The notes under the pieces were generated by a model, which had not been told where the DNA came from, searched no databases, and worked only from the letters and a program-made list of their open reading frames with translations. From Escherichia coli (GTDB taxonomy: Bacteria; Pseudomonadota; Gammaproteobacteria; Enterobacterales; Enterobacteriaceae), in the NCBI RefSeq assembly GCF_003334765.1, contig NZ_QOWT01000063.1: a stretch of DNA of 5,656 nt. One strand, written 5' to 3'. Position numbers and translations under genes: made by a program. How positions within the stretch are numbered: the first letter of the stretch is position 1; the number at the start of each line of letters is the position of its first letter. This document shows, piece by piece, positions 4,370 through 5,475 of the stretch.

Positions 4370-4576
4370 TTACAGACGGGACTGTGCAATACGCGCCTGC
4401 AGCCAGGCTTCCACTTCACTTTTCAGCCAGCGGGAGCTGCGCCCCATTTTGATGGGCGCAGGAAAGCCCCCATCTTTGATGAGTTTGTCAAACCACTTAT
4501 CGGTTAGGCCGGTCAGTTGAGTGATAAACGCCATGTCGACCATCTGGTCATCCATCAGCGAAACTGGGGTAGCCAT
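4370..4576 (-). CDS. alpA: AlpA-family phage/island regulatory protein (helix-turn-helix; excisionase/transcriptional activator-like), 68 aa
   Basis: Translation MATPVSLMDDQMVDMAFITQLTGLTDKWFDKLIKDGGFPAPIKMGRSSRWLKSEVEAWLQARIAQSRL matches the AlpA/Vis consensus (..TG.s..t.y.lik.G.FP.PIK.G.RssRW...EVE.W). The ATG at 4574..4576 is preceded by a strong GGAGG site with a 9-nt spacer (reverse complement of 4577..4590). Stop TAA at 4370..4372. The track's longer 135-aa ORF (to GTG at 4777) is probably an unused upstream extension. Confidence 0.8.
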   Translation of the reverse strand: MATPVSLMDDQMVDMAFITQLTGLTDKWFDKLIKDGGFPAPIKMGRSSRWLKSEVEAWLQARIAQSRL

Positions 4577-5475
4577 GAGAATGTTCCTCCGGATGTTGTT
4601 AAACCAGCCGGTGTGGTCATGAAAACAGCGCGCCACCTTCACCGGCATAACAACCGGGGAGAAACGTAAAAAATAATCGGGAATGCGGCTGTCCGGAGAT
4701 AAACGGGGGGATTGCGATGGCAGAGCCGTAGCGGAATCCCGGAGGGGGGTGTTGCGAAAAGATGCTTCCGCACGCACGCGCGATAAAGAGGGGATAGTTT
4801 TCGTGAGGACAGGGAGAGAAGCAGGCGTTCTGATAATTGCAGAGTTGTTTTCGGAGGTGGTTACAGTGAGTCAGCCCGTTCCTGGCGAGCAGGAGACTGA
4901 TATCACCGATGGGATAAGGTTGTCTGATTGGTATTATAAATATAAGAAGTCATCAGAGAGTAACGTAAAGGATTTGCCAGAATAACCTAAGAGAGTAAAT
5001 CTCTCCGGTAACAGAGCGCTGTGAAGCATTCTGTATCAGAGTGCAGATACATGAACGCTGATGCGTAAAATCAGCAGTGACACGCCAGCTCCCCCTATGC
5101 CCATTCCTGTATAAGACATGAACTGAGTGTATTAATGCTTCTGCCCTGAGACTGAGCCGGTGAGTGAGGGGCTGAGAAATCCCTCTTGACACAGCTCTAA
5201 CCAGAAATACTTCCCCGGTTGTTGCGGTGCGTCCGGATCCCCGATAACGGAACACTAAGGCTGTATTGCGGGACACCGGGTAAGTAGCAGCCCGTAAGGC
5301 GTTCTGTCAACGCCAGAAAAAATGATTTCCCACACGCGTTATAGACTCACTCCTGTGGACCTGGAAGCCCGTAACTCTGCGGTTGCCCACTGACTGACGG
5401 AACTGACCGCAAATTTTACGAGTGCGTGCTGGGCTTCAGTCTGGTCACCTGAGCGTTCGGTAACGGAGGCGCGGG

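Follow-up and report, generated by a model that had tools for sequence, protein, structure and literature searches.

An internal ATG as the very probable start of an AlpA-family gene on an Escherichia coli island, with a conserved block upstream

The stretch of DNA analysed here (the window) comprises 5,656 nucleotides (nt) of the Escherichia coli contig NZ_QOWT01000063.1 (assembly GCF_003334765.1) and carries, on its minus strand, a small gene of the AlpA family. The open reading frame (ORF) of this gene can be followed upstream to a GTG, which would give a protein of 135 amino acids (aa). Comparison of gene copies and calculated ribosome-binding energies indicate that translation very probably starts at an internal ATG, yielding 68 aa, and that the 67 codons in front of it are non-coding. 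The proximal part of this non-coding stretch is more conserved than the gene itself and may act as a leader that hides the Shine-Dalgarno (SD) sequence, a reading towards which the evidence tips slightly.

Candidate start codons

The features on which the choice of the start depends are listed below; start codons are named by the position of their first base.

Long ORF, 4370..4777, minus strand: 135 aa with a GTG start, taken from the ORF listing
Coding sequence (CDS), 4370..4576, minus strand: predicted 68-aa AlpA-family (Phage_AlpA/HTH_17) DNA-binding protein, from ATG 4576..4574 to the stop TAA 4372..4370
SD sequence GGAGG, 4586..4590, minus strand: 9-nt spacer to ATG 4576, read from the sequence
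GTG opening the 135-aa ORF, 4775..4777, minus strand: lacks an SD, very probably a spurious start
Third in-frame ATG, 4646..4648, minus strand: start of a 92-aa form, or of a possible 24-codon leader ORF
67-codon 'extension', 4577..4777, minus strand: very probably untranslated leader or intergenic DNA outside the protein

An earlier note, made from the letters of the window, had described the 135-aa ORF as over-extended by 67 residues rich in R, S and P, and had pointed to the internal ATG with its GGAGG as the real start of a 68-aa protein. The over-extension was confirmed, as R, S and P together account for 34% of the extra residues vs 18% of the core, and the proposed start is supported by conservation, by SD energy and by the calls of the Prokaryotic Genome Annotation Pipeline (PGAP), all three given below. 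Both candidate starts named in that note exist; the in-frame ATG 4648, which would give 92 aa, had been overlooked.

The duplex between the SD region and the 3' end of the 16S rRNA (SD:anti-SD) amounts to -9.5 kcal/mol for ATG 4576, which places it in the top 1.9% of all window positions. The corresponding value is -2.4 kcal/mol for ATG 4648, equal to the window median and weak, and +2.4 kcal/mol, i.e. no SD, for GTG 4777. The minus strand contains 33-35% C and 17-19% A in this region, and stop codons are rare because it is so rich in C and poor in A: from base composition, the probability of meeting no stop in 67 codons is 0.14, and 6% of shuffles yield an in-frame start 67 or more codons upstream. 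The 135-codon frame is an accident of base composition, about what chance gives (P about 0.06-0.14). ATG 4576 very probably initiates translation via the GGAGG at 4590..4586, and the 201 nt upstream (4577..4777) very probably stay outside the translation of this protein, being open in frame only through the C-rich and A-poor character of the strand. Against this reading stands that ATG 4648 is in frame in the window, which would allow some 92-aa product.

Comparison among E. coli copies

An alignment of 10 sequences was the source of the ratio of nonsynonymous to synonymous substitution (dN/dS) and of the counts of variable columns. A larger set consisted of 81 unique 547-nt sequences from E. 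coli genomes and metagenomes, the metagenomes being scanned with an invariant 29-mer inside the CDS; where 80 copies are given as the denominator, the other copies were compared against the window. The results by region, all read on the minus strand, were as follows.

Core, 4576-4373, 10 sequences: no indels; 6/8/22 variable columns by codon position; dN/dS 0.18
Far extension, 4777-4649, 10 sequences: indels of 1, 2 and 13 nt; 20/18/17 variable columns by codon position; dN/dS 1.03
Further upstream, 4916-4778, 81 sequences: diversity 0.297; many indels
Far extension, 4777-4677, 81 sequences: diversity 0.244; 13 distinct indel events; 65/80 copies off by a non-multiple of 3
Leader block, 4676-4577, 81 sequences: diversity 0.048; 6 distinct indel events; 36/80 copies off by a non-multiple of 3
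Core, 4576-4373, 81 sequences: diversity 0.070; no indels

In the 10 sequences the far extension showed proportions of synonymous and nonsynonymous differences (pS and pN) of 0.18 and 0.19, so that its divergence is about the synonymous rate of the core (pS 0.20). Diversity by codon position in the 81 sequences was biased towards third positions in the core (0.037/0.037/0.136) and flat in the far extension (0.27/0.21/0.25). By these substitution patterns the distal stretch (about 4777..4677) evolves neutrally, as intergenic DNA.

The 68-aa CDS is intact in all 81 copies, with the ATG at its start present in 80/81 and the GGAGG likewise kept in 80/81. The open frame upstream of it ranges from 7 to 113 codons: an in-frame stop lies at most 53 codons upstream in 30/81 copies, 13/81 are without any alternative in-frame ATG, GTG or TTG, and a protein of about 130 aa is encodable in only 38/81. 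Two nucleotides near 4744 are absent from 68 of the 80 other copies, and the frame of GTG 4777 in the window is therefore a minority allele. The '133-aa' proteins found in public records begin at the neighbouring GTG 4773, which is in a different frame. When the proteins were aligned, the extensions fell into classes unrelated to one another, each of which results from reading homologous DNA in a shifted frame.

Homologues in Proteus and Providencia are 71-76% identical in the core and share nothing upstream. These genes encode 74-76 aa, have an AGGAG 7-8 nt before the ATG and begin within a few residues of the N-terminus of the 68-aa form; they lie 95-100 nt downstream of a same-strand gene of the YagK/YfjJ type, and in one Proteus locus (L011) a stop closes the frame 19 codons upstream. 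Aligning homologues had been named in the earlier note as a way to find out whether the 67 residues are conserved at the protein level; no such conservation was found, as the extension shows frame changes, stops and missing starts within E. coli and is absent from Proteus and Providencia.

It could still be supposed that the true product is the 135-aa protein from GTG 4777, composed of an AlpA domain and a basic, Pro/Ser-rich N-terminal tail. The ORF is open, and forms of 135 or 133 aa are annotated in a small number of GenBank and IMG records (for the former, APEC O1 ABJ01392.1). Set against this are a GTG without an SD, an extension with a dN/dS near one and a flat codon-position profile, a frame that is broken in 65/80 copies and stopped within 53 codons in 30/81, and the 2 nt missing near 4744, through which the first ~12-20 residues of the '133-aa' alleles are read in another frame; moreover, the extension is absent from other genera and matches no family. 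We regard this product as extremely improbable, and at the level of sequence comparison it is already contradicted.

Protein identity and gene calls

The earlier statement that the extension has no AlpA similarity held: the Pfam matches to Phage_AlpA and HTH_17 are confined to residues 80-129 of the 135-aa form, i.e. they lie wholly inside the 68-aa core, and an NCBIfam search gave no family match of any kind for the extension. PF05930 was matched with an independent E-value (i-E) of 1e-4 and 22.5 bits over residues 80-126 of the 135-aa form, and PF12728 with an E of 9.6e-4; close homologues carry both families in precomputed matches. PHROG 66, described as 'excisionase and transcriptional regulator', was matched at 8e-9, and the NCBIfam excisionase model TIGR01764 reached 19.5 bits, below its curated cut-off of 28.8. 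A length of 68 aa fits the size of about 60-75 aa used as a criterion for single-domain AlpA-family proteins. The AlphaFold2 model of the 135-aa form is too poor to confirm the fold, its mean predicted local distance difference test (pLDDT) score being 46, with 50-66 in the core and 35-44 in the extension. On the family matches, the 68-residue product is a predicted AlpA-family winged-helix DNA-binding protein.

AlpA-family members act as excisionases or as activators of mobile-element genes. The AlpA of E. coli K-12 activates intA and thereby promotes prophage excision, and TorI is an excisionase. By analogy with such proteins, the product of the window gene is most likely a DNA-binding protein that promotes excision or activates the genes of its island. 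With TorI (the KplE1 excisionase; 1z4h, 66 aa) and with the PDB entry 8c3t (73 aa), the 68-aa form shares a weak, collinear similarity over nearly all of its residues, aligning N-terminus to N-terminus (E 0.06-0.1). K-12 AlpA (b2624, 70 aa, from the CP4-57 cryptic prophage) resembles it in carrying PF05930, in size, in having a single helix-turn-helix (HTH)/winged-helix domain and in its location on an integrative element. However, BLASTP aligned the two at 33% identity over 30 residues only (E 8e-5), a match that points to relatedness at the level of the family and not to orthology. The neighbours differ as well: in K-12 these are intA, yfjH and yfjI, whereas the window gene is followed by a gene for a 200-aa hypothetical protein and, in relatives, is preceded by hha-family and inovirus-Gp2/YfjJ-like genes. 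The name 'alpA' used in the earlier note was thus right as to the family (PF05930) and too specific as to the gene, which by these comparisons is a paralogue of K-12 alpA and should be called 'AlpA-family'.

As that note had expected, gene calls disagree, with 68-, 92-, 117-, 130-, 133- and 135-aa forms present in public records. PGAP uses the equivalent of ATG 4576 (a 207-nt CDS) in 10/10 RefSeq loci examined, at 82-100% identity. The exact 68-aa sequence was found on at least 1000 contigs, the 133-aa form on 124, the 92-aa form on 40 and the 135-aa form on a single contig (APEC O1, ABJ01392.1); 117- and 130-aa forms occur likewise. The RefSeq cluster WP_000235213.1 ('AlpA family transcriptional regulator' or 'helix-turn-helix transcriptional regulator', 68 aa, Enterobacteriaceae) is identical to the window's product in protein and start codon. 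The window gene is the same gene that RefSeq already annotates under this accession, where the question of its start, an ordinary one, is already resolved. The locus was found in 3648/5426 complete E. coli genomes at 82-100% identity, the carriers having a median of 2 copies.

The conserved block upstream of the start

The proximal ~97 nt of the extension (4673..4577, minus strand) are more conserved than coding sequence, with a diversity of 0.048 vs 0.070 for the core as a whole and 0.136 at its third positions. The block is still conserved at one locus (L010) whose sequence further upstream is unrelated. Folding predicted the following elements in it.

Predicted SD-sequestering leader hairpin, 4583..4665, minus strand: within the conserved block 4673..4577
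Helix H1 (predicted), minus strand: GUUUCUCC at 4665..4658 paired with the SD stretch GGAGGAAC at 4590..4583
Helix H2 (predicted), minus strand: GUUGUUA at 4654..4648 paired with UAACAAC at 4601..4595
Helix H3 (predicted), minus strand: GCCGGUG at 4646..4640 paired with CACCGGC at 4613..4607

We propose that the ~97 nt may form a conserved cis-acting leader, which in the mRNA would fold into a long hairpin. The basal helix of this hairpin would pair the anti-SD GUUUCUCC with the SD and hold down translation of the regulator for as long as the structure stays closed. RNAalifold returned identical stacked helices from 9 and from 33 variants, and the two common 1-nt indels fall on positions that are unpaired in the RNA model. 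The minimum free energy (MFE) of the block folded alone corresponds to a z-score of -2.1 in the window and of -3.1 to -3.9 in other allele classes. In the window leader the probability of the SD being unpaired is 0.001, vs 0.20 in shuffles that kept the SD and the start fixed. Four E. coli allele classes gave 0.001-0.008 vs about 0.2-0.3 in their shuffles, of which 0-2.3% were as low. The SD is also occluded in leaders of unrelated sequence, namely in Proteus (0.021, reached by 2.3% of shuffles) and Providencia (0.001, reached by 0%). The arrangement resembles that of other SD-sequestering mRNA leaders in placing a predicted stable stem-loop over the ribosome-binding site (RBS) of a dosage-sensitive regulator.

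Several results weigh against the hairpin. The more distant leaders L017 and L018 showed no significant SD occlusion, and a G-to-A change breaks one pair of H3 in several alleles. No compensatory pair was found among 23 pairs in 33 variants, and 500/500 shuffles reached the observed covariation score; this test is uninformative because the pairs of the hairpin almost never vary. No Rfam 15 family matched anywhere in the window at E <= 1. In addition, the block could just as well be conserved for a role as an operator or promoter in the DNA. On the structure predictions, we lean slightly towards the conserved block 4673..4577 being an SD-sequestering leader.

The main alternative is that the block acts at the level of DNA, as a promoter, as an operator for AlpA autoregulation or as another binding site, and not through RNA structure, which we consider possible but doubtful. 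Such a role would agree with a very low diversity without compensatory changes, and the block contains a 7-bp perfect inverted repeat (GTTGTTA/TAACAAC) together with four CCGG motifs. However, no sigma-70-like promoter was found in it at the scan threshold, the 1-nt indels between the repeat arms would alter promoter or operator spacing and yet are unpaired in the RNA model, and the sequence-unrelated leaders of Proteus and Providencia also occlude their SD.

The scan for sigma-70 promoters covered 4200-5656 and returned no sites at its threshold, and the one terminator-like site (4647..4631) is within chance expectation. By eye, an extended -10-like motif, TGCAATTAT, can be read at 4833..4841 (minus strand), below the scan threshold; it is part of a second conserved block, AACTCTGCAATTATCAGAAC (about 4847..4828), which among the E. 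coli copies only L010 lacks. This motif is a possible candidate for the promoter of the AlpA-family gene, in which case the 5' untranslated region (UTR) would measure about 250 nt.

A scan of genome contigs with the invariant 18-mer AACATCCGGAGGAACATT gave 10 matches in unrelated phyla, about the number expected by chance, and added no diversity. A literature search combining AlpA or excisionase with SD, leader or coupling returned nothing relevant; a paper on RgdR (PMC3378721) was set aside, as it concerns an unrelated 99-aa protein. 'Autotransporter' proteins matching the extension had suggested that the leader might be shared with that of Ag43 (flu). This was rejected, as the proteins in question (P0038 and P0058; NZ_LR134231.1) are deletion fusions, in which the leader and codons 1-3 (MAT) have become directly linked to the C-terminal end of an autotransporter of the Ag43 type. 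Such chimeric ORFs occur in some E. coli genomes, where they carry the annotation 'autotransporter domain-containing protein'.

The upstream ATG 4648

All 41 leader variants have ATG 4648 unchanged. Its frame agrees with that of the core in 45/81 copies, the window among them, and differs in the remaining 36/81. The ORF beginning there terminates in 29/81 copies at a TGA that overlaps the AlpA-family ATG; it stops 25 nt before that ATG in 3/81 and runs past it, out of frame, in 4/81. In the predicted hairpin ATG 4648 is located at the junction of H2 and H3, a position that suffices to explain its invariance. A start codon occurs at an equal distance (-71 or -72) in Proteus and Providencia, in the overlapping state in L011 and in the in-frame state in L012-L016.

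As to variation around the downstream start, codon 2 of the CDS (4571..4573, minus strand) occurs in six forms among the variants (GCT, AAT, ATC, ACC, AAG and CTC), and hardly any variation is seen in the 25 nt that precede it or in the codons that follow. Position +4 is A in most alleles with an out-of-frame upstream ORF, which creates the ATGA overlap.

Two readings give ATG 4648 a role in translation. A 92-aa isoform might be made besides or instead of the 68-aa protein wherever this ATG is in frame; its invariance, the in-frame state of 45/81 copies, the in-frame start 72 nt upstream in Proteus L012/L013 and Providencia L014-16, and the calls of some pipelines would fit such a product. However, 1-2-nt indels put the ATG out of frame in 36/81 E. 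coli copies and in Proteus L011, and the 24 residues are therefore not a required part of the protein; furthermore, its SD is weak (-2.4 kcal/mol), its burial at the predicted H2/H3 junction alone explains the invariance, and the 24-residue peptide is unrelated between genera, so that we hold this isoform to be very unlikely. Alternatively, ATG 4648 could open a leader ORF of ~24 codons, the translation of which would melt the hairpin, with termination and reinitiation at the ATGA overlap feeding the AlpA-family start. This agrees with the TGA overlap in 29/81 E. coli copies and in Proteus L011, with a start codon at -71 or -72 in all three genera, with a GAGGAA SD 8 nt upstream of the Proteus version and with the strong predicted occlusion of the AlpA-family SD. 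Nevertheless, the arrangement is not conserved (45/81 in frame, 3/81 stopping early, 4/81 running past the start), the upstream ATG of E. coli has no SD and is itself paired in the predicted fold, and the peptide is not conserved either. Moreover, the pattern was noticed post hoc, and its counts are not independent, the allele classes being phylogenetically linked. Coupling of this kind appears rather unlikely.

Leader-peptide coupling is used in plasmid replication control, in the R1 tap-repA and ColIb-P9 repY-repZ systems. The likeness to these consists of an upstream ORF, here of ~24 codons, with a stop that overlaps the downstream start in many alleles. The leader described here differs in that its upstream ORF has no SD in E. 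coli and changes frame between alleles, and in having neither covariation support nor an Rfam family. In a tap-repA-type arrangement the upstream ORF has its own RBS and ends at the downstream start; in the window, ATG 4648 shares the frame of the core, and the SD in front of it is weak. We know of no antisense RNA for this leader. Building on the SD-sequestering hairpin, it may be speculated that the leader is a dedicated switch for the translation of an excisionase or activator encoded on the island, in which the hairpin would lock the SD and translation from ATG 4648 would unlock it, either through a 24-codon leader ORF ending at the ATGA overlap or through in-frame read-through in alleles like that of the window. 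This architecture would have been retained in Proteus and Providencia despite their differing sequence, and we rate the proposal as having a low probability.

Island context and neighbouring genes

The gene sits in a degraded E. coli integrative island, with IS100, IS66 and IS1 elements in its context and inovirus-Gp2/YfjJ-like and hha-family genes in relatives; no integrase was found in the window or in the flanks examined. Three further ORFs of the window were considered.

200-aa hypothetical protein, 3674..4276, minus strand: begins 93 nt after the stop of the AlpA-family gene, PGAP-annotated in most relatives
Opposite-strand ORF of 100 codons over the leader, 4683..4985, plus strand: equivalent annotated by PGAP as WP_000840367.1 (88 aa) in some genomes (L002)
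387-codon ORF, 126..1289, minus strand: called by PGAP as the 383-aa hypothetical protein WP_000514100.1

The 200-aa gene (3674..4276) probably forms one transcription unit with the AlpA-family gene, and its product matched no NCBIfam or PHROG family. Its start is similarly ambiguous (4274..4291, minus strand), with GTG 4291, ATG 4282 and ATG 4276 available, of which PGAP picks 4276. The plus-strand ORF 4683..4985 was considered as a source of constraint on the region and rejected, since in most aligned copies it is interrupted or read in other frames; PHROG gave no match for it, and its annotation is probably spurious. The 387-codon ORF at 126..1289 matched nothing in NCBIfam or PHROG.

Between 1290 and 3674, about 2.4 kb are free of ORFs exceeding 114 codons on both strands. 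Fragments of IS21-transposase and AAA-ATPase pseudogenes are marked in this region by PGAP, and genomes that are otherwise 100% identical have an IS100 insertion of ~2 kb near window position 2760, which is absent from the window itself. The stretch looks like a decayed part of the island. In most related loci a small Hha/YmoA-family gene lies divergently upstream of the AlpA-family gene (L002:1140-1316). The equivalent position in the window (5285..5461, plus strand) has stops in all three frames, and L001 is unannotated there; the Hha/YmoA-family gene is lost or degraded in the window allele.

Implications for annotation and island biology

The main importance of the start assignment is one of annotation hygiene: GenBank, IMG and metagenome calls carry 92-, 117-, 130-, 133- and 135-aa versions of what is very probably a 68-aa protein. 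Such spurious N-termini pollute protein clusters, and the coding label hides a conserved, putatively regulatory leader. About two thirds of complete E. coli genomes carry this regulator, which possibly triggers island excision and which appears to be under tight post-transcriptional control. If true, the SD-sequestering leader would be a further layer explaining the stable silence of such islands.

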